Shown here: positions 6,113-21,128 of the stretch, piece by piece
Numbering within the stretch: the first letter of the stretch is position 1
Layout: each line of letters begins with the position of its first letter
IMG/VR virus record: IMGVR_UViG_2534682222_000006
Coordinates: 1 to 21,128 of that record
Length of the DNA: 21,128 nt
DNA from: a virus
Taxonomy: Duplodnaviria > Heunggongvirae > Uroviricota > Caudoviricetes
Strand: one strand, 5' to 3'
Translations under genes and position numbers: made by a program
Notes under the pieces: generated by a model
Database searches by the model: none
Seen by the model: only the letters and a program-made list of their open reading frames with translations
What the model was told of the DNA's origin: nothing

Positions 6113-6137
6113 AAAAGCCGCTTGCGCGGCTTTTTTT
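6113..6137 (+). terminator. GC hairpin followed by T7 tract between D and E (intrinsic terminator / attenuator-like)
   Basis: Stem GCCGC (6117-6121) / GCGGC (6126-6130), loop TTGC, then TTTTTTT (6131-6137); sits between the decoration and major capsid genes. Confidence 0.5.
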
Positions 6138-6150
6138 ACGGGAAAAATCT

Positions 6151-7176
6151 ATGTCCGTTTACACCACTGCCCAACTGCTGGCGGTCAATGAGAAGAAATT
6201 CAAATTCGATCCGCTTTTCCTGCGTATCTTTTTCCGCGAAACCTATCCCTTCAGTACAGAGAAGGTTTACCTGTCGCAAATTCCTGGCCTGGTCAATATG
6301 GCGCTTTACGTCTCGCCGATTGTCTCCGGCAAAGTGATCCGCTCCCGTGGCGGCAGCACGTCTGAATTCACGCCGGGTTATGTGAAGCCGAAACACGAAG
6401 TTAACCCACTGATGACTCTCCGCCGCCTGCCGGATGAGGATCCGCAGAATCTCGCTGACCCGGTCTATCGCCGTCGCCGCATTATCCTTCAGAACATGAA
6501 GGATGAAGAGCTGGCGATTGCTCAGGTCGAAGAGAAACAGGCTGTTTCGGCGGTGCTCAGCGGTAAATACACCATGACCGGGGAAGCGTTCGAGCCTGTT
6601 GAAGTCGATATGGGCCGCAGCGCTGGTAACAACATTGTCCAGGCCGGTGCGGCTGCATGGTCAACCCGCGACAAAGAAACGTATGACCCGACCGATGACA
6701 TTGAAGCCTACGCGCTCAACGCCAGCGGTGTGGTCAACATCATTGTGTTCGATCCGAAAGGCTGGGCGCTGTTCCGTTCCTTCAAGGCTGTTGAGAAGAA
6801 GCTGGATACGCGTCGTGGTTCTAACTCTGAGCTGGAAACTGCCGTGAAAGACCTGGGTATGGCTGTTTCATACAAGGGGATGTTTGGCGATGTGGCCATC
6901 GTGGTGTACTCCGGCCAGTACGTCGAAAACGACGTCAAAAAGAATTATCTGCCGGACCTGACAATGGTGCTGGGGAATACCCAGGCTCGTGGCCTGCGTA
7001 CCTATGGCTGCATTCTTGATGCTGATGCCCAGCGCGAAGGTATCAATGCCTCGACACGCTACCCGAAAAACTGGGTGCAGTCGGGGGATCCGGCGCGCGA
7101 ATTCACCATGATTCAGTCAGCTCCGCTGATGCTGCTGCCAGACCCTGACGCATTCGTCTCCGTCAAACTGGCATAA
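6151..7176 (+). CDS. E: major capsid protein gpE
   Basis: 341 aa, same length as lambda E, collinear with high apparent identity (MS.YTTAQLLA.NE.KFKFDPLFLR.FFRE.YPF.TEKVYLSQIPGLVNMALYVSPIVSG...). Confidence 0.95.
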   Translation: MSVYTTAQLLAVNEKKFKFDPLFLRIFFRETYPFSTEKVYLSQIPGLVNMALYVSPIVSGKVIRSRGGSTSEFTPGYVKPKHEVNPLMTLRRLPDEDPQNLADPVYRRRRIILQNMKDEELAIAQVEEKQAVSAVLSGKYTMTGEAFEPVEVDMGRSAGNNIVQAGAAAWSTRDKETYDPTDDIEAYALNASGVVNIIVFDPKGWALFRSFKAVEKKLDTRRGSNSELETAVKDLGMAVSYKGMFGDVAIVVYSGQYVENDVKKNYLPDLTMVLGNTQARGLRTYGCILDADAQREGINASTRYPKNWVQSGDPAREFTMIQSAPLMLLPDPDAFVSVKLA

Positions 7177-13332: not shown

Positions 13333-14084
13333 GTCTTAATGCTGATTATCAAAAACTCGAGCCGGGCAATGAAGTCCGGCTTTTTTCTGTCGATGGCACA
13401 GCGTTCGGTATGTCAGATGTACTCCGCTTCCACGCACATAATATCGCGCATACCCCGGAAGAGATTGAGGCTGCAGGCGGGGATGAGAATAAACTTCCGG
13501 CGAAGTCCATCTGGTGGCAGGGGGAGGAGTATAAAGCCTGGCCGTGTCAGATTGAGGGGATCGAGGCTTCAACCTCGGGAAGTAGTGCCCAGCCAAAACT
13601 TTCGGTTGCTAACCTCGACAGTTCGATCACCGCGCTTTGCCTGGCTTACGACGATATGCTGCAGGCGAAGGTGACGATACATGACACCATTGGTAAGTAT
13701 CTCGATGCGAGAAACTTCACCGGAGGCAATCCGACAGCCGATCCGACCCAGGAGAAGCTGAAGGTTTTCTACATCGATGCAAAGAGCAGTGAAACCAATG
13801 AAGTTGTTGAGTTCACACTATCCAGCCCTATGGATCTGCAGGGGCTGATGATACCTACCCGCCAGCTTCATTCTCTGTGCACATGGTGCATCCGGAACAA
13901 GTACCGAACCGGCGACGGCTGCGACTATGCTGGTACGCGCTATTTCGACAAAAACAACAACCCGGTAAGCGATCCGTCGCTGGATGAATGCAACGGTACG
14001 TTGGCAGCATGTGAGCTACGTTTTGGCAAAGGTAATGAGTTATCGCATGGCGGATTCGTTGGAACGTCGTTGATCAGGAGCTGA
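13329..14084 (+). CDS. L: tail tip protein gpL (Cys-rich C-terminal region)
   Basis: 251 aa (lambda L 232 aa); C-terminal Cys cluster (CTWC..., DGCDYAG, DECNGTLAACELRFGKGNELSHGGF) reminiscent of the lambda L C-terminus. Confidence 0.88.
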   Translation: MSLNADYQKLEPGNEVRLFSVDGTAFGMSDVLRFHAHNIAHTPEEIEAAGGDENKLPAKSIWWQGEEYKAWPCQIEGIEASTSGSSAQPKLSVANLDSSITALCLAYDDMLQAKVTIHDTIGKYLDARNFTGGNPTADPTQEKLKVFYIDAKSSETNEVVEFTLSSPMDLQGLMIPTRQLHSLCTWCIRNKYRTGDGCDYAGTRYFDKNNNPVSDPSLDECNGTLAACELRFGKGNELSHGGFVGTSLIRS

Positions 14085-14085
14085 T

Positions 14086-14796
14086 ATGCGTCAGAAAACC
14101 ATCGATGCGATTATGGCGCATGCTGCAGCTGAATATCCTCGTGAGTGTTGCGGCGTGGTGGCGCAAAAGAGCCGGGTAGAGAAATATTTTCCATGTAGTA
14201 ACCTCGCTACCGAGCCGACAGAACATTTTCACCTGTCGCCAGAAGACTATGCCGCTGCTGAGGACTGGGGTACGGTGATCGCCATCGTTCACAGTCACCC
14301 TGACGCCACTACGCAGCCGAGCGAACTGGATAAAGCGCAATGCGACGCAACGCTTTTACCCTGGCATATTGTGAGCTGGCCGGAGGGGGATTTACGCACC
14401 ATCCAGCCGCGCGGAGAACTGCCACTGCTGGAGCGTCCGTTTGTGCTTGGACACTTCGACTGCTGGGGGCTGGTAATGAGCTATTTCCGGCAAACGCATG
14501 GTATCGAGCTCCACGATTACCGGGTGGATTATCCCTGGTGGGAAAACGCCTATCCGGACAATTTTTATCAGGATTGCTGGTATGAATGCGGATTCCGTGA
14601 ATTCGACGGACCACCGAAACCCGGTGATATGGTGATCATGCAGGTCCAGGCCGATAAGTGGAATCACGCGGGAATTCTGCTGGAGGGAAATATGCTGCTG
14701 CACCACCTGTACGGACATCTGAGCCAGCGCGTGCCGTATGGGGGCTACTGGCAGGAAAGGACGATGAAGATTCTTAGACATCAGAATTTTATTTAA
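14086..14796 (+). CDS. K: tail tip assembly protein gpK (N-terminal MPN/JAMM-like plus C-terminal NlpC/P60-like domains)
   Basis: 236 aa; JAMM-like E....HSHPD...PS..D motif in the N-terminal half; Cys/His-containing C-terminal half (FDCWGLV...H.GILL...LHH); position after L as in lambda. Confidence 0.88.
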   Translation: MRQKTIDAIMAHAAAEYPRECCGVVAQKSRVEKYFPCSNLATEPTEHFHLSPEDYAAAEDWGTVIAIVHSHPDATTQPSELDKAQCDATLLPWHIVSWPEGDLRTIQPRGELPLLERPFVLGHFDCWGLVMSYFRQTHGIELHDYRVDYPWWENAYPDNFYQDCWYECGFREFDGPPKPGDMVIMQVQADKWNHAGILLEGNMLLHHLYGHLSQRVPYGGYWQERTMKILRHQNFI

Positions 14797-14843
14797 CAAA
14801 CTGTCACTGATACTATCGTGTAGTACACAGCAAGGATAACGAT

Positions 14844-15068
14844 ATGTATACAGTTGGGTTTGGTTGGATCTTCGTCGGTATTTTTATTGGGTTAATTCTC
14901 TGGTTTTTCATCAACCGCGCCAGCGTCAGAGCGAACAGGCCGGTTGAATTACTTGAGTCTATCGACCAGAAATTATCAAAAATAGTAGATCCAAACTTCG
15001 AGGCAAATAACAAAGACCAGTCGAAAGAAAACTACCTTGAAGAAGCAAGGAAAAAAGCTTGGCTTTGA
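14844..15068 (+). CDS. moron-encoded small single-pass membrane protein, candidate superinfection-exclusion protein (YebO / HK97 gp15-like)
   Basis: 74-aa ORF in an AT-rich insert between K and I, which abut in lambda; AAGGA RBS at 14833-14837; N-terminal hydrophobic helix (VGFGWIFVGIFIGLILWFFI) followed by NRAS and a charged tail; own terminator immediately downstream. The LILWFFINRAS motif is what I recall for E. coli YebO and HK97 gp15 (from memory, unverified). Confidence 0.6.
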   Translation: MYTVGFGWIFVGIFIGLILWFFINRASVRANRPVELLESIDQKLSKIVDPNFEANNKDQSKENYLEEARKKAWL

Positions 15069-15083
15069 GAGCGTAAATTAACA

Positions 15084-15106
15084 AACCACCTACGGGTGGT
15101 TTTTTT
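15084..15106 (+). terminator. intrinsic terminator downstream of the moron ORF
   Basis: Stem AACCACC (15084-15090) / GGTGGTT (15095-15101), loop TACG, T tract 15100-15106. Confidence 0.65.
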
Positions 15107-15117
15107 ATGGGGGCAGC

Positions 15118-15726
15118 ATGCAAGAGGTAATGACAAGAATTGAGCTAAGTGGCGTGCTAGCTAAGACATATGGAAGGGTTCATCACCGTCTGGTTCGCAC
15201 TACTGCTGAAGCCATTAATGCACTCGCGAAAACCATCAATGGATTCGAGAAATTCTTAAACACAAGCAAGGCCAGAGGGCTGACGTATGCCGTTTATAGA
15301 GATAAAAAGAATATTGGCGTTGATGATCTCGGCTTTCCCGTCACCGGCGAAGTGATCCGGATTGTCCCTGTAGTAATAGGGAGTAAAAAGGCTGGTCTTT
15401 TGCAGACGATCTTGGGGGCCGTGCTTATTACTGCTGCTGTGTTGACTGGACCCGGCGGTATTGGCGCTGCTTTCGCTGCTGGTGGATTGACGGGGTTTGC
15501 TGCTGCCACTGGTGCCTCGTTGGTCCTCGGTGGGGTTATTCAGCTGCTTTCACCGCAGCCATCAGGCATAGCCAGTAAACAAAGCGCAGATAACCGTGCA
15601 TCGTATGCGTTTGGCGGGGTAACCAACACTGCAGCGCAAGGCTACCCGGTGCCTCTGCTTTATGGTAAGCGTCGAATCGGCGGAGCGATTATTTCTGCCG
15701 GAATTTATGTCGAAGATCAGCAGTAG
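15118..15726 (+). CDS. I: tail tip assembly protein gpI
   Basis: 202 aa (lambda I 223 aa); Gly/Ala-rich hydrophobic middle (GAVLITAAVLTGPGGIGAAFAAGGLTGFAAATGASLVLGG) and conserved C-terminal PVPLLYG.RR.GG motif as in lambda I; 5' half visibly AT-richer than the backbone. Confidence 0.85.
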   Translation: MQEVMTRIELSGVLAKTYGRVHHRLVRTTAEAINALAKTINGFEKFLNTSKARGLTYAVYRDKKNIGVDDLGFPVTGEVIRIVPVVIGSKKAGLLQTILGAVLITAAVLTGPGGIGAAFAAGGLTGFAAATGASLVLGGVIQLLSPQPSGIASKQSADNRASYAFGGVTNTAAQGYPVPLLYGKRRIGGAIISAGIYVEDQQ

Positions 15727-15745
15727 ATAACTAACCTTTTTTCTG

Positions 15746-15767
15746 GCCACCTTCGGGTGGCTTTTTT
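15746..15767 (+). terminator. hairpin plus T tract between I and J (terminator-like; near-duplicate of the element at 15084-15106)
   Basis: Stem GCCACC (15746-15751) / GGTGGC (15756-15761), loop TTCG, T tract 15762-15767; followed by TATGGGCGCA just before the J start. Confidence 0.55.
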
Positions 15768-15778
15768 ATGGGCGCAAT

Positions 15779-18700
15779 ATGGCTACAGATAAAGTGTTAA
15801 AAGGCCGCAAGGGCGGCAGCTCAAGTTCCCGAACCCCTACCGAACAGCCTGATGATCTGCAATCTGTAGCGAAGGCAAAGATCCTCGTTGCGCTTGGGGA
15901 AGGGGAGTTTGCTGGACAGCTCACCGGGAAGGATATCTACCTGGACGGAACAGCGCTGGAGAATGCTGACGGCTCCCAAAACTTCAGCGGGGTAACGTGG
16001 GAGTTTCGCGCGGGAACGCAGGCGCAAAAATATATTCAGGGTATTCCCGGTACCGAAAACGAGATCAGCGTAGGAACTGAGGTATCAAGTGCCACAGCCT
16101 GGACGCGCACGTTTACCAATACGCAGCTTTCAGCAGTTCGCCTGCGTCTTAAATGGCCCTCGCTTTTCAAACAGGAAGACGACGGCGATCTGGTGGGTTA
16201 CTCGGTCAATTATGCGATTGACCTGCAGACGGACGGCGGCACATGGCAGACGGTACTCAATACCAGCGTGACCGGCAAAACGACGTCTGGTTATGAGCGC
16301 AGCCACCGTATCGATTTACCGCAGGCTGGCAGCACATGGACAATACGTCTGCGTAAGATTACCTCTGACGCCAACAGCGCGAAGATCGGCGACACGATGA
16401 TGCTGCAGAGCTTCACCGAGGTGATTGATGCCAAACTGCGCTACCCGAACACCGCGCTGCTCTACGTCGAATTCGACTCAAGCCAGTTCAACGGCTCTAT
16501 TCCTCAAATTTCATGCGAACCGCGCGGCCGCGTTATCCGCGTTCCAGATACCTACGACCCTGAAACCCGCACTTATAGCGGTACATGGACCGGTGCGTTT
16601 AAGTGGGCATGGACGGATAACCCTGCGTGGATTTTTTACGACCTGGTTGTTTCTGACCGGTTTGGCCTCGGGCACCGTTTGACCGCTGCGAATATTGATA
16701 AATGGACTCTTTATCAGGTTGCTCAGTATTGTGATCAGATGGTACCAGACGGCAAAGGGGGCAACGGTACAGAACCACGCTATACCTGCAACGTGTACAT
16801 TCAGGACCGGAACGACGCCTACACAGTCCTGCGTGATTTTGCCGCTATCTTCCGTGGCATGACCTACTGGGGCGGGGATCAGATTGTGGCCCTGGCTGAC
16901 ATGCCGCGCGATGTTGATTACAGCTATACGCGCGCTAACGTTGTTGGCGGTCGCTTCACCTATTCGAGCAGCACCACGAAAAGCCGCTACACCACAGCGC
17001 TGGTTTCATGGTCAGATCCGGGTAACGCTTATGCCGACGCGATGGAGCCGGTATTTGAGCAGGCGCTGGTGGCGCGATACGGCTTCAATCAGCTGGAAAT
17101 GACAGCTATCGGCTGCACCAGGCAGTCAGAGGCGAACCGAAAGGGGCGCTGGGGTATTCTCACCAACAACAAGGATCGCGTTGTTTCGTTTGATGTCGGG
17201 CTGGACGGAAACATTCCGCAGCCGGGCTACATCATCGCCGTGGCAGACGAGCTGCTTTCCGGAAAGGTTATGGGCGGCCGCATCAGCGCCGTTAACGGTC
17301 GCGTTATCAAACTTGACCGCGTAGCTGATGCAGCACCAGGTGATCGCCTTATTCTCAACATGCCTTCCGGAGCGTCGCAGAGCAGGACCATTCAGGCCGT
17401 GAACGGGGAATCAGTCACAGTCACCACGGCATACAGTGAGACGCCACAGGCCGAAGCTGTTTGGGTGGTTGAATCTGACGAGCTTTACGCGCAGCAGTAT
17501 CGTGTTGTCAGCGTCTCCGACAACGGTGATGGCACTTTCTCAATCACCGGCGCATGGCACGACCCGGATAAATATGCCCGCATCGATACCGGAGCCATCA
17601 TTGACCAGCGGCCGGTGAGCGTGATCCCGCCTGGTAACCAGTCGCCGCCTGCGAACATCGTGATCAGCTCGTTTTCCGTGGTGCAGCAAAATATCAGCGT
17701 CGAAACGATGCGCGTGAGCTGGGACCAGGCGCAGAACGCTATCGCCTATGAAGCGCAATGGCGCCGCAACGACGGGAACTGGGTTAACGTGCCGCGCACC
17801 TCCACCACGTCATTCGACGTCCCGGGGATTTATGCCGGGCGCTACCTGGTGCGGGTGCGCGCAATCAATGCCGCAGAAATTTCATCCGGATGGGGCTATT
17901 CAGAAGAGAAAACGCTGACGGGTAAAGTGGGCAATCCACCGAAGCCGGTTGGCTTCATCGCTTCTGAAAATGTGGTTTTCGGCATCGAGCTGAACTGGGG
18001 ATTCCCGGCGAATACCGACGACACGCTGAAGACGGAAATTCAGTATAGCCTGACCGGTACCGAGGACGATGCAATGCTGCTGGCCGATGTGCCTTACCCG
18101 CAGCGCAAATATCAGCAGATGGGCCTTAAGGCCGGGCAGATTTTCTGGTACCGCGCGCAGCTGGTGGACCGCAGCGGCAACGAATCAGGGTACACAGAAT
18201 GGGTGCGAGGACAGGCCAGCATCGATGTTTCCGACATCACAGACGTGATCCTGGAGGAAATTAAAGACTCCGATACCTTCAAGGACCTGATCGAGAACGC
18301 GGTGGACAGCAACGAAAAAATTGCTGGCATGGCTGACGAAATTAAAAACCATGCCGACGAACTCGAGCAGCAGGCGAAAGACATCCTGGAGAACGCTGAC
18401 GGGCTGGCTCAGGCCGAAGTGAAGATCGACGAGATTTCTGTGTCGATGGACGGCATGACGGGAGGAGTGAAGAACTCGGCAATCGCGATTATTCAGAATG
18501 GGCTGGCGCAGGTGGTAAGCCGTCGCTCGCAGACCGCCACGAACGCCGGGAACAGTGCCAGTATAGACAGAGTGGATACTACGATTGCCGATACCAGCCA
18601 GGCGGTCGCACGCGCGCTGGTCACACTGGATGCAGAAGCTGGTGGCAATATCTCTAACTCAACGGACCTGACAGAAACTCTTGCTGATTTCACCCAGGCT

Positions 18701-19234
18701 TCGGCAACAAAAATCAACACTCTGACTGTTAAATCAGGCGAAAACAGTGCAGCGATAAACGTCAACGCACAGGCTATAGCAGATGTAAACGGTAACCTCA
18801 GCGCGATGTATAACATCAAGGTGGGGGTGTCCAGTAACGGGCAGTATTACGCTGCCGGGATGGGTATTGGGGTTCAAAATACACCCTCCGGCATGCAGTC
18901 ACAGGTAATCTTCCTGGCAGACCGTTTCGCCGTGACTACTATGGTCGGCGGGACTGTAACACTGCCGTTCGTTATCCAGAATGGCCAGGCCATTATCAGG
19001 GATACAGTCATTGGCGACGGGACCATAAGCAATGCAAAAATTGGCAATTACATCCAGTCGAACAATTATGTTGCCGGCTCTGTTGGCTGGAAACTGGATA
19101 AGTCCGGGACGTTTGAGAACTACGGTTCGACAGCTGGGGAGGGAGCCATGAAGCAGACCAACCAGACAATCAGCGTCAAGGATGGCAACAACGTTCTGAG
19201 AGTGCAGGTTGGCCGATTAACGGGGGTGTTCTGA
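15779..19234 (+). CDS. J: central tail fibre / host specificity protein gpJ
   Basis: 1151 aa (lambda J 1132 aa); N-terminal and central regions collinear with lambda J (e.g. YPNTAL. .V..DS.QF, DYCDQMVPDG.GG.EPR.TCN); C-terminal about 300 residues do not match what I recall of lambda J. Confidence 0.93.
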   Translation: MATDKVLKGRKGGSSSSRTPTEQPDDLQSVAKAKILVALGEGEFAGQLTGKDIYLDGTALENADGSQNFSGVTWEFRAGTQAQKYIQGIPGTENEISVGTEVSSATAWTRTFTNTQLSAVRLRLKWPSLFKQEDDGDLVGYSVNYAIDLQTDGGTWQTVLNTSVTGKTTSGYERSHRIDLPQAGSTWTIRLRKITSDANSAKIGDTMMLQSFTEVIDAKLRYPNTALLYVEFDSSQFNGSIPQISCEPRGRVIRVPDTYDPETRTYSGTWTGAFKWAWTDNPAWIFYDLVVSDRFGLGHRLTAANIDKWTLYQVAQYCDQMVPDGKGGNGTEPRYTCNVYIQDRNDAYTVLRDFAAIFRGMTYWGGDQIVALADMPRDVDYSYTRANVVGGRFTYSSSTTKSRYTTALVSWSDPGNAYADAMEPVFEQALVARYGFNQLEMTAIGCTRQSEANRKGRWGILTNNKDRVVSFDVGLDGNIPQPGYIIAVADELLSGKVMGGRISAVNGRVIKLDRVADAAPGDRLILNMPSGASQSRTIQAVNGESVTVTTAYSETPQAEAVWVVESDELYAQQYRVVSVSDNGDGTFSITGAWHDPDKYARIDTGAIIDQRPVSVIPPGNQSPPANIVISSFSVVQQNISVETMRVSWDQAQNAIAYEAQWRRNDGNWVNVPRTSTTSFDVPGIYAGRYLVRVRAINAAEISSGWGYSEEKTLTGKVGNPPKPVGFIASENVVFGIELNWGFPANTDDTLKTEIQYSLTGTEDDAMLLADVPYPQRKYQQMGLKAGQIFWYRAQLVDRSGNESGYTEWVRGQASIDVSDITDVILEEIKDSDTFKDLIENAVDSNEKIAGMADEIKNHADELEQQAKDILENADGLAQAEVKIDEISVSMDGMTGGVKNSAIAIIQNGLAQVVSRRSQTATNAGNSASIDRVDTTIADTSQAVARALVTLDAEAGGNISNSTDLTETLADFTQASATKINTLTVKSGENSAAINVNAQAIADVNGNLSAMYNIKVGVSSNGQYYAAGMGIGVQNTPSGMQSQVIFLADRFAVTTMVGGTVTLPFVIQNGQAIIRDTVIGDGTISNAKIGNYIQSNNYVAGSVGWKLDKSGTFENYGSTAGEGAMKQTNQTISVKDGNNVLRVQVGRLTGVF

Positions 19235-20557: not shown

Positions 20558-20578
20558 CCCACTACGCTTAAACATAAA

Positions 20579-20601
20579 CCTCGCTCCGGCGGGGTTTTTT
20601 T
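20579..20601 (+). terminator. intrinsic terminator downstream of the lipoprotein gene
   Basis: Stem CCTCGC (20579-20584) / GCGGGG (20589-20594) with one G-U pair, loop TCCG, T tract 20595-20601. Confidence 0.6.
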
Positions 20602-20617
20602 ATTGCCTGGAGAAAAT

Positions 20618-21128
20618 ATGCTTTATAACACCGGCACCATCGCCATTAATGGAAATACCGCCACCGGGACGGGTACAAACTGGACGGCACCGGCCAGCCA
20701 GGTCCGCGCTGGCCAGACGATCATCGTCATGTCTAACCCGGTGCAGATGTTCCAGATTTCATCTGTGAACAGCGCCACGTCAATGACGGTTACGCCTGCC
20801 GCTTCCCCGGCGCTGAGCGGCCAGAAATACGCCATTCTGGTGTCAGACATTATCTCCGTGGACGGACTGGCCCAGGCAATGTCGCAGCTCATCAAAGAGT
20901 ATGACGAGAACATTGGTGCGTGGGAGACGTTCGCCACAACCTCAGCCAACCAGAACATTACCGTTACGATCAATGGCACCAGTTTATCAATCCCGGCTCT
21001 TGGGAAATTACTGCAGAAGGGGAGCAACGGAGCTTTGCCGGTTAATCAAGGTGGTACCGGCGCAACGAATGCCGCAGACGCTCGCACAAACCTTGGTTTG
21101 GGAGAAGGTTCGGCATTACCCGTTGGGG
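20618..21128 (+). CDS. tail fibre protein, N-terminal part (truncated by window end)
   Basis: Open frame from ATG 20618 (GGAG at 20608-20611) to the window end with no stop (170 codons by my hand translation); not in the ORF track because it lacks a stop; Thr/Gly/Asn-rich sequence with a ...GGTGATNAADARTNLGLGEGSALPVG motif typical of phage tail fibre shafts. Confidence 0.6.
   Translation, partial: MLYNTGTIAINGNTATGTGTNWTAPASQVRAGQTIIVMSNPVQMFQISSVNSATSMTVTPAASPALSGQKYAILVSDIISVDGLAQAMSQLIKEYDENIGAWETFATTSANQNITVTINGTSLSIPALGKLLQKGSNGALPVNQGGTGATNAADARTNLGLGEGSALPVG

Follow-up and report, generated by a model that had tools for sequence, protein, structure and literature searches.

Morons have been described as units that carry their own promoter and their own terminator (PMC3594210). 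In the public records of related phages, hairpins next to the tail genes I and J are already marked as terminators: the HK75 record labels both of the elements considered here 'terminator', the HK97 record labels both 'putative terminator', and in the N15 record the element at the I-J junction is a 'putative rho-indep. transcription terminator'. The moron terminators of HK97 and HK022 were reportedly described by Juhala et al. in 2000, and the modular theory of Susskind and Botstein is said to have proposed boundary or linker sequences for modular exchange among lambdoid phages.

The window, by which we mean the whole stretch of 21,128 nucleotides of viral DNA analysed here (IMG/VR record IMGVR_UViG_2534682222_000006), has one such element directly ahead of I (element 1) and a second directly ahead of J (element 2). 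The sequence of element 1 is identical in HK97, where it follows the counterpart of HK022 gene 20, and in HK022, where it follows gene 20 itself, one base is changed 5' of the stem; in both phages, as in the window, an insert of low GC content flanked by conserved tail genes ends with it. Both elements are carried by mEp235 as well as by HK022 and HK75. Unlike the window, in which element 2 stands alone in the I-J junction with no moron ahead of it, HK97 and HK022 have a two-gene insert preceding element 2 (gp22 / gp23-srb). N15 shares with the window the I-J hairpin, GCCACC-TCCG-GGTGGC followed by T7 and ATGGGCGCAATATG, and the D-E hairpin, but carries only one of the two copies because it lacks the K-I moron. 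Lambda also has a hairpin at the homologous I-J position, with the compensated stem CCGCC/GGCGG, and its hairpins likewise lie in a long Q-antiterminated late operon, where read-through by modified polymerase is expected. However, the lambda T run at I-J is interrupted (UUUUGUCAUUU) and the leader reads UUUAUGGAGCGUGAGGA-AUG; a weak terminator is therefore expected there, and the hairpin may serve another purpose too.

Two look-alike elements ahead of I and J

The elements and the genes that follow them are:

15083 to 15106, plus strand: hairpin and T run of element 1, AAACCACC-UACG-GGUGGUUU then U7 (terminator scan and fold); stem 15083-15090 / 15095-15102 with core CCACC/GGTGG, loop TACG at 15091-15094, T run at 15100-15106
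15107 to 15120, plus strand: leader of I, AUGGGGGCAGC and the AUG of I (15118-15120), with an SD-like GGGGG at 15109-15113
15118 to 15726, plus strand: tail assembly gene I (Pfam Lambda_tail_I), found in all relatives examined
15745 to 15767, plus strand: hairpin and T run of element 2, GGCCACC-UUCG-GGUGGCU then U6; stem 15745-15751 / 15756-15762, loop TTCG at 15752-15755, T run at 15762-15767
15768 to 15781, plus strand: leader of J, AUGGGCGCAAU and the AUG of J (15779-15781)
15779 to 19234, plus strand: tail tip / host specificity gene J (Pfam FNIII-A_GpJ; annotated relatives)

Both elements follow one plan, in which a CCACC-UNCG-GGUGG hairpin is succeeded by six or seven T's, by ATGGG.GCA and by the ATG of I or J. 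Element 1 begins 15 nt past the moron stop codon, and element 2 begins 19 nt past the stop codon of I. A repeat search joins 15086-15120 and 15747-15781 as a single ungapped direct repeat of 35 nt with 30 matching positions (86%), bearing out, at the same positions, the near-identity reported in the initial annotation. A degenerate 30-mer made from both copies, with three mismatches allowed, finds only these two sites in the 21 kb, and none in 100 shuffles.

Extended identity between the two copies had been put forward as something that pairwise alignment should reveal, and it does so in part. Unrelated modules of hairpin, T run, SD and ATG, drawn from the window and its relatives, already share 60-76% identity with the J element (mean 0.665, SD 0.045), so that much of the likeness is generic; the I element scores 81% in the same comparison, above this baseline of 66.5 +/- 4.5%. 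Because the unrelated modules already score so highly, the likeness beyond the generic is real but moderate. It consists of the identical 5-bp stem core and of matches at 8 of the 11 bases between T run and ATG.

The moron and the K-I junction

Element 1 lies at the end of an insert between K and I, the other parts of which are:

14797 to 14843, plus strand: moron 5' end, with a possible promoter and the SD AAGGA ahead of the moron ORF
14844 to 15068, plus strand: moron ORF of 74 aa, a YebO-like small membrane protein (Pfam PF13974 YebO, E = 3.8e-11)

The ORF is the same gene as HK022 gp20, which is annotated 'moron gene product', and the insert has the marks of a moron: it is extra DNA (14797-15117, giving a K-I gap of 321 nt), its GC content is 38-42% against 50-59% in the flanks, and element 1 provides a terminator of its own. 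By eye, an extended -10-like TGATACTAT with a weak -35 can be seen in the AT-rich moron 5' end (14808-14816); since a consensus promoter scan called none there, the moron promoter is only putative. The 5' segment of the moron takes the place of the last ~10 K codons of N15 and mEp237, and K ends in ...ILRHQNFI* in the window vs ...IVRYKDVRGNEACRK* in N15.

In N15, mEp237 and lambda the YebO moron is absent, and K and I overlap or abut with no hairpin between them. When a K-I junction does bear a moron, a terminator and SD nearly always stand immediately ahead of the I ATG, and the type of hairpin follows that of the moron; K-I morons end in many different terminator hairpins, and I leaders differ widely from one moron type to another. 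The sequence of the I element is uniform within one type, being the same in all 21 loci with the YebO moron. Homology to N15 and mEp237 restarts at the I ATG, and so the I leader is supplied by the moron cassette. To judge from these comparisons, the I-proximal element evidently came in with the moron, the insertion of which replaced the K/I overlap and therefore had to provide I with a new ribosome-binding site as well as bringing a terminator.

It had been suggested in the initial annotation that the moron, and possibly gene I, was inserted by recombination at a pre-existing hairpin that became duplicated. Insertion of the moron between K and I, with element 1 as its end, agrees with the comparison with N15, mEp237 and lambda and with the low GC content. 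The K-I junction offered no pre-existing hairpin for duplication, all moron-less K-I junctions being hairpin-free overlaps or gaps of 12-15 nt, and an insertion of gene I is contradicted by its occurrence in all the relatives examined, lambda, N15 and betaproteobacterial prophages among them. Among the fetched loci, the YebO moron occupies only the K-I slot. In Klebsiella phage P7641 a YebO homologue (46%) is flanked by tail genes T and H; its hairpin is a different one, though of the same architecture, and because of that difference the homologue does not settle the origin of element 1.

The J-proximal element across relatives

A hairpin ahead of J, with compensating substitutions in its stem, is present in ~100 non-redundant loci from many Enterobacterales genera. 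The I-J hairpins comprise 47 distinct sequences, nearly all of which form perfect stems of 5-7 bp. In the stem alignment 90.8% of cells are paired, compared with 37-68% when the partner is slid, and three of the six pairs are changed on both sides, one pair occurring as AU (24), GC (11), GU (5) and UA (1); the covariation score was reached by 0 of 500 shuffles. The T6 + ATGGGCGCAAT that follows the hairpin is nearly invariant with or without morons, and the same leader is found after the stems GCCACC/GGTGGC, ACCGCC/GGCGGT, GCCCGC/GCGGGC, GGACGC/GCGTCC and GGTCGCC/GGCGGCC. Six consecutive T's occur in every one of 104 non-redundant J leaders, and across these sequences the entropy from -17 to -1 is 0-0.4 bits, except at -4 and -3 (0.7-0.9 bits), with mostly 1-1.9 bits in J codons 2-20 and in the stem-loop.

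The I-J hairpin is found in the moron-less N15 and mEp237 and also in lambda, and is kept where the gap is 50-60 nt as well as where it is 318-2029 nt. Any insert at this junction sits 3' of the I stop codon and 5' of the hairpin. In betaproteobacterial prophages, I and J overlap and are hairpin-free. The suggestion that the hairpin is a conserved tail-tip element thus holds for the copy ahead of J, which on this comparison of relatives is evidently long established at the I-J junction of enterobacterial lambda-like tail modules and conserved in its structure.

Termination as the probable function

Both elements are probably intrinsic (Rho-independent) terminators placed right against the region where translation of the following late gene starts. 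A terminator scan rates both as terminator-like, and the hairpin of each is present in the minimum-energy and the centroid folds. The stems, of 8 bp (4 GC) and 7 bp (5 GC) with 4-nt UNCG loops, lie within the range of a GC-rich stem-loop of ~5-14 bp, U runs are found within 0-2 nt past the stem (T7 at 15100-15106 and T6 at 15762-15767), and for the J element the relatives' alignment adds compensatory substitutions. The six invariant T's fit termination better than a hairpin that merely stabilises the RNA. A search of the region with Rfam 15 at a permissive threshold gave only sub-threshold matches to the terminator parts of unrelated sRNAs (E of at least 0.44), and six related loci with I-J inserts gave no Rfam match at E < 0.1.

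How such terminators might act can be proposed from their anatomy and from lambda biology, on which both termination and Q read-through are based here; searches of the literature found neither transcript ends nor ribosome profiles mapped at these junctions, and no demonstration of Q read-through at these particular hairpins. In a lysogen, element 1 would end the transcript of the YebO-family moron and thereby keep transcription out of I and J, and element 2 would halt unmodified RNA polymerase coming from upstream, ahead of the host-range gene J. During lytic growth, Q-modified polymerase would be expected to pass through both hairpins (the window itself is without Q), after which AUGGG.GCA, 11 nt before the AUG, would serve as Shine-Dalgarno region and spacer for I or J.

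Two features are not covered by the simplest form of this explanation. Insulation from a moron alone leaves the I-J terminator of the moron-less N15 and mEp237 unexplained, and a plain weak SD is insufficient to explain how little the 11 nt past the T run vary. Both elements are most likely of a known kind, the ordinary punctuation of lambdoid late operons, as already marked in public records.

Similar modules at other junctions and the origin of the likeness

Two further modules of the same architecture occur in the window:

6117 to 6153, plus strand: D-E junction module, GCCGC-UUGC-GCGGC, U7, ACGGGAAAAAUCU and the AUG of E (fold)
20576 to 20620, plus strand: cor-stf junction module, after a cor-like gene, AAACCUCGC-UCCG-GCGGGGUUU, U-run, AUUGCCUGGAGAAAAU and the AUG of a tail fibre gene (terminator scan and fold)

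All 78 related loci in which a D-E gap could be measured have the D-E module, none of them with an insert, and its hairpin is annotated as a terminator in N15 and mEp237; the mEp237 site equivalent to 20576-20620 is annotated as a rho-independent terminator. Hairpins at the E-FI and V-G junctions of the same operon have no T run.

Common descent of the I and J copies is plausible. It has a more specific form, tentative and a little short of an even chance, in which the hairpin, T7 and ATGG(R) are the right end of mobile moron cassettes and the I-proximal copy is a diverged J-type junction; lone hairpins would then mark, or be the scars of, moron docking sites at which cassettes are swapped through short homology. 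As a proposal about where the elements came from rather than what they do, it can stand beside the terminator explanation.

Several observations at other junctions favour such a portable module. Exact matches to CCACCTNNGGGTGGYTTTTTTATGG in viral contigs stand before J in 62 cases, before I in 23, L in 8, M in 7 and other genes in 13, and the same hairpin module closes insertion cassettes at H-M, M-L, K-I and I-J in other phages. Cassettes with a conserved left end AGCCGAAAGGCRGGAG, a conserved right end CCTGATATTCRAWCAGTA and the hairpin are found at the M-L and I-J junctions, and cassettes sharing this right end and hairpin at the H-M junction. In a lineage whose M, L and K are ~33-37% identical to those of the window, empty M-L junctions have a lone GCCACC-ACAA-GGTGGC + T6 + ATGGGAG, and in occupied ones the insert is always 5' of the hairpin. 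Identical 16-nt hairpins stand at the I and J junctions in 13 of 80 loci, CCACC-type hairpins stand at both in ~48 of the 80, and the 81% identity of the window's copies exceeds the generic level. The hairpin-free overlap of I and J in betaproteobacterial prophages implies, moreover, that the I-J hairpin is itself derived by insertion, even where it stands alone. A search for related loci with lambda I returned near-identical copies only and added little diversity.

Against this, the longest exact run common to the two copies in the window is 11 bp, which is not enough for homologous exchange to be efficient, and mosaic breakpoints between the window and its relatives miss the hairpin and map to about -150 to -100, within the 3' end of I. 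The D-E hairpin is free of inserts throughout its 78 loci, the YebO moron keeps to the K-I slot and its homologue elsewhere has another hairpin, and CCACC-UUCG-GGUGG is especially stable, is reachable by convergence and also occurs before unrelated genes.

The elements resemble the linkers of Susskind and Botstein in being short conserved junction sequences, common to diverged genomes and placed at the edges of exchangeable cassettes, but differ from them in the position of the measured breakpoints, in the end of gene I, and in having the full anatomy of a terminator, which linkers need not have. The hairpin was also considered as the recombination joint between the I and J modules and rejected, identity to the window rising from ~70-84% to ~100% upstream of it, within the final 100-150 nt of I. 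Of concerted evolution between the two copies in each genome there was no sign, loop and flank variants varying independently.

The other account of the likeness, chance resemblance between independent generic terminators that all need a GC stem, a stable tetraloop, a T run, an SD and an ATG, is rather unlikely. UNCG tetraloops closed by C-G are generally favoured, and this preference, the 60-76% identity of unrelated modules to the J element and the many different terminator hairpins among K-I morons are what chance would lead one to expect. The 81% identity of the I and J elements is, however, about 3 SD over the baseline, their stem core is identical, their spacing from T run to ATG is equal (11 nt, with the 8 matching bases), and the same stem recurs at several junctions in several lineages.

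Possible roles in mRNA stability and translation

A main role after transcription would make the hairpin an mRNA processing or stability element, either protecting the 3' end of upstream RNA or, once RNase E has cut, forming a protective stem-loop at the 5' end. The U run and AUGGGCGCAAU would then be a tuned initiation region for J and, in this lineage, also for I, with ribosomal protein S1 proposed to bind the U run ahead of a weak SD. The conservation of T6 + ATGGGCGCAAT beyond that of the following J codons or the stem speaks for such a role, as do lambda's retention of a hairpin with a broken T run and the E-FI and V-G hairpins without one. J is low in copy number in lambda virions, which the weak SD of J (GGG) would fit. 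A run of at least six T's right after the stem in 104 of 104 leaders is nevertheless a signature of termination that stability does not need, and I leaders vary so widely between moron types that no single leader sequence is needed for I; we consider it unlikely that the main role is post-transcriptional. The anti-sRNAs of EHEC prophages (PMC4104026) were rejected as counterparts of the conserved leader, since they sit downstream of PR' and not at tail junctions.

An improbable combination of these ideas makes the hairpin, U7 and AUGGGCGCAAU a portable module, dedicated to the junctions of enterobacterial lambdoid tail operons, that both sets the translation of J and anchors cassettes, the I-proximal copy being a transplanted J-type junction. 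The leader, invariant across genera, may on this proposal set translation of the host-range protein J, and exchangeable cassettes may dock immediately 5' of such hairpins at H-M, M-L and I-J. The cassettes have conserved ends, a structured, covarying ~140-nt leader absent from Rfam, and small cargo proteins of at least 20 unrelated kinds.

Upstream ATGs and tiny ORFs

As first noticed in the initial annotation, an out-of-frame ATG lies 11 nt upstream of the I and J starts, and each opens a tiny ORF:

15107 to 15109, plus strand: upstream ATG of element 1, opening a 7-codon ORF (15107-15130)
15768 to 15770, plus strand: upstream ATG of element 2, opening a 10-codon ORF (15768-15800)

The ATG is found in 100 of 104 J leaders, with GTG in two of the exceptions. 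Its counterpart is ACG in most D-E junctions, ATT or ATA in otherwise equal M-L junctions, and ACG or CTG in some lambda-type I-J leaders; other I leaders have ATTGG or ATTTAGG, and the upstream ATG is missing from many of them. Start codon and frame are thus not kept wherever the element occurs, as those of a conserved uORF would be. Because equivalent junctions have ACG, ATT or ATA in its place, the tiny ORFs look incidental, the ATGs being apparently a by-product of 'T run + A + U + GG(SD)'.

That the tiny ORFs are translated and control I and J, as an attenuation or translational-coupling device, is very improbable: the frequency of the ATG in J leaders is not specific, because the whole 17-nt stretch of the J leader is conserved, and although in lambda, too, J is preceded at 14 nt by an out-of-frame ATG with the same relative frame, the ORFs begin past the T run, 3' of the hairpin, rather than upstream of or overlapping the stem, and so could not govern its formation as a leader peptide does; the folds of the two elements contain no alternative, competing or antiterminator pairing; the upstream ATG is preceded by the U run only, with no SD; and it is elsewhere replaced or absent. 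Translational coupling between I and J is unlikely because the 52-nt gap between them holds a stable hairpin.

Implications

For the window itself these results have little consequence; the HK97, HK75 and N15 records already mark the elements as terminators. For specialists, the interest lies in the patterns: a terminator kept ahead of J over many genera with an almost invariant leader, cassettes of accessory genes that always lie just upstream of such hairpins, and one cassette family with a common structured leader and highly variable cargo. If these patterns hold, they would help to explain how accessory genes expressed in the lysogen can lie inside tail operons without switching on the tail genes, and might show how accessory genes move between junctions.

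Two similar hairpins before the tail genes I and J

The window is a lambdoid phage late operon, encoding head and tail functions. Overall its closest relatives are mEp237, HK225 and N15; HK75, mEp235, HK022 and HK97 match the K-I-J segment at 96-98% identity. The features concerned are:

14086-14796, K
14844-15068, 74-aa YebO-family ORF (the moron gene)
15083-15120, I-proximal element, ending at the I start
15118-15726, I
15745-15781, J-proximal element, ending at the J start
15779-19234, J

The initial annotation described near-duplicate elements before I and J, and these are real: its coordinates and sequences were correct on re-reading the window, and the two segments form a single ungapped 35-nt repeat with 30 matches. 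A degenerate pattern made from both copies had no third match in the window and none in 100 shuffles. In each copy a CCACC/GGTGG stem, extended by A-U or G-C pairs, closes a UNCG tetraloop and is followed by 6-7 T and then ATGGG.GCA, the start codon of I or J lying 11 nt downstream of the upstream ATG. Both copies are terminator-like by terminator scan, and folding gives the expected hairpin. A large share of their likeness is generic: unrelated hairpin/T-run/SD/ATG junctions in the window and its relatives share 60-76% identity with the J copy, and the I copy, at 81%, stands about 3 standard deviations over this baseline. The L coding sequence also contains, at 13359-13392, a 9-bp terminator-like hairpin with TTTTTCTG after it.

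The J-proximal element is old and its stem is compensated

Among 80 viral loci collected via the I protein and not via the hairpin, every one with a recovered I-J junction has a hairpin, T6-8 and ATGGGCGCAATATG before J, at I-J gaps both of ~52 nt and of 318-879 nt. The J hairpin is likewise found in ~45 Enterobacterales prophages (one genome per species; genera including Enterobacter, Citrobacter, Kosakonia, Kluyvera, Rahnella, Erwinia, Pantoea and Mixta), down to 55% I identity. The stem differs wholly in sequence between lineages while its pairing is kept (47 distinct hairpins; 90.8% paired, against 37-68% with slid partners), and one position shows AU, GC, GU and UA pairs. Hardly any variation is seen in the six T's or in most of the next 11 nt, which are more conserved than the first 20 J codons. 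N15 and mEp237 have the J element with no accessory gene nearby, and the N15 record labels its own a putative rho-independent terminator; lambda has a hairpin with a compensated stem at the same position, but its T run is interrupted. Since I and J overlap without a hairpin in betaproteobacterial relatives, the I-J hairpin is a derived but old feature of enterobacterial phages. HK97, HK022 and others have extra genes between I and J, and these are always placed 3' of the I stop codon and 5' of the hairpin.

The I-proximal element arrived with the moron

It had been suggested that the moron, and possibly gene I, was inserted at a pre-existing hairpin. Low GC and moron-less relatives support insertion of the moron between K and I; gene I, universal in the relatives, must be left out of this scheme. 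The earlier hairpin is not borne out either: N15, mEp237, lambda and a number of prophages have no hairpin at the K-I junction, where the two genes either overlap or are separated by 12-15 nt. The window's insert is the HK022 gp20 moron. It takes the place of the last ~10 K codons and N15 homology restarts at the I ATG; given also its low GC, the insert therefore supplied the terminator and ribosome-binding site now used by I. K ends ...ILRHQNFI* in the window (14760-14796) and ...IVRYKDVRGNEACRK* in N15 (locus L205, 14300-14360), so that moron insertion altered the K C-terminus and abolished the K/I overlap of moron-less phages.

In the window's lineage the K-I junction is an insertion hot spot for many different inserts of 321-2807 nt. 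Nearly all of them end in a terminator hairpin, T run and SD directly before the I ATG, and hairpin type tracks insert type. Across loci L124-L203 the hypervariable slot holds at least 10 insert types (gaps 321-2807 nt), including several lipoproteins, a 176-aa secreted protein and multi-gene inserts of 2.7-2.8 kb. The HK75 and HK97 records already mark the moron hairpin as a terminator, and morons have been described as having their own promoter and terminator (PMC3594210). In HK97 the YebO-like ORF (L002, ~1380) is interrupted by an in-frame TAG, at a codon that reads CAG in HK022 and CCG in the window, which is why HK97 annotates only a terminator there and no gene. Klebsiella phage P7641 (L526, 1429-1722) has a YebO-like moron with 46% identity to that of the window. 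It is located between the tail genes T and H, where HK97 has its gene 15 moron, and its own, different terminator abuts the H start codon.

Function and origin

The anatomy of both elements and the strict conservation of the T run point to intrinsic termination. In a lysogen, element 1 (before I) would end the moron transcript and element 2 (before J) would halt any unmodified polymerase before J, whilst after induction Q-modified polymerase would, judging from lambda biology, read through both. The bases 3' of the T run would provide the SD and spacer for the next gene. The same hairpin/T-run/leader layout is found at the window's D-E and cor-stf junctions and after the Klebsiella phage YebO homologue between T and H. 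The D-E junction (6117-6153) reads hairpin, T7, ACGGG, 8 nt and ATG; its hairpin is present in 78/78 related loci with a measurable D-E gap, never with an insert. Because the D-E hairpin is constant yet insert-free, such hairpins are operon punctuation in their own right.

A control role for the tiny out-of-frame ORFs fares less well. They start downstream of the hairpin and so cannot be an attenuator leader, and the ATG varies between equivalent junctions, being ACG at D-E, ATT or ATA at M-L, ACG or CTG in some lambda-type leaders and absent from many I leaders. The J leader keeps it, as it keeps all surrounding bases. The ORFs are treated here as presumably incidental.

The I and J copies may be a true duplication, with observations pointing both ways. 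Common descent is favoured by an exact-pattern scan, which finds the same hairpin, T run and ATGG ahead of J, I, L, M and other genes. Against it, the longest run shared by the two window copies is 11 consecutive bases, and CCACC-UUCG-GGUGG is a very stable hairpin that may have originated repeatedly and independently. Common descent is also favoured by cassettes at the M-L and I-J junctions, whose ends are conserved and whose right end runs into the hairpin, and by H-M cassettes with the same right end, likewise running into the hairpin. One lineage has M, L and K proteins with only ~33-37% identity to those of the window; there a hairpin of the same type stands alone in empty M-L junctions, and where such a junction is filled the insert is always on the hairpin's 5' side. 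Against common descent, mosaic breakpoints are located within the end of I rather than in the hairpin, the I and J copies do not co-vary within genomes, and the YebO gene in another slot has a different hairpin.

Cassettes with a conserved leader

A ~140-nt conserved block, not present in the window, lies between the terminator hairpin and the start codon of many insert genes in reverse orientation, HK97 gp23 and HK022 srb among them, at H-M, M-L and I-J junctions:

2700-2830 in L002 (HK97)
2510-2640 in L003 (HK022)
also in L004, L017, L018, L021, L034, L041, L303 and others

It has a TAnnnT -10-like box on the reverse strand and an invariant UCAGCC...GGCUGA helix around a hairpin with 5 compensated pairs, 3' of which come GGAGGGAUGGCUGAUUACCUC and an SD; Rfam gave no match for it. 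Behind this leader are at least 20 unrelated protein families, mostly of 65-100 aa (e.g. in L034, L156, L029 and L017), among which Pfam recognised only DUF6602 and DUF1883. In the reverse-gene cassettes the expression module thus stays constant while the cargo varies greatly. Their left-end motif, AGCCGAAAGGC(G/A)GGAG, is a GCC-GAAA-GGC mini-hairpin plus SD (just 3' of the M stop codon in L017, L018 and L041; 2170-2198 in L002); after it comes a short forward ORF, in many cases coiled-coil-like, that appears to lack its own promoter.

Lambda I-J DNA (99.6-100% protein identity) was also found in contigs L352-L365, assigned to Collinsella, Neobacillus, Pseudomonas, Bradyrhizobium, Shewanella, Enterococcus and others; several contig names give a coverage of ~1, and the assemblies appear to be contaminated with phage lambda.

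Significance

Judged by sequence, both elements are intrinsic-terminator-like and stand at moron/gene boundaries of a lambdoid late operon. Their novelty is low, the records of close relatives annotating the same sequences as terminators. The remaining interest lies in the unusually invariant J leader, in the consistent placement of inserts 5' of such hairpins, and in the structured leader conserved among the reverse-gene cassettes.
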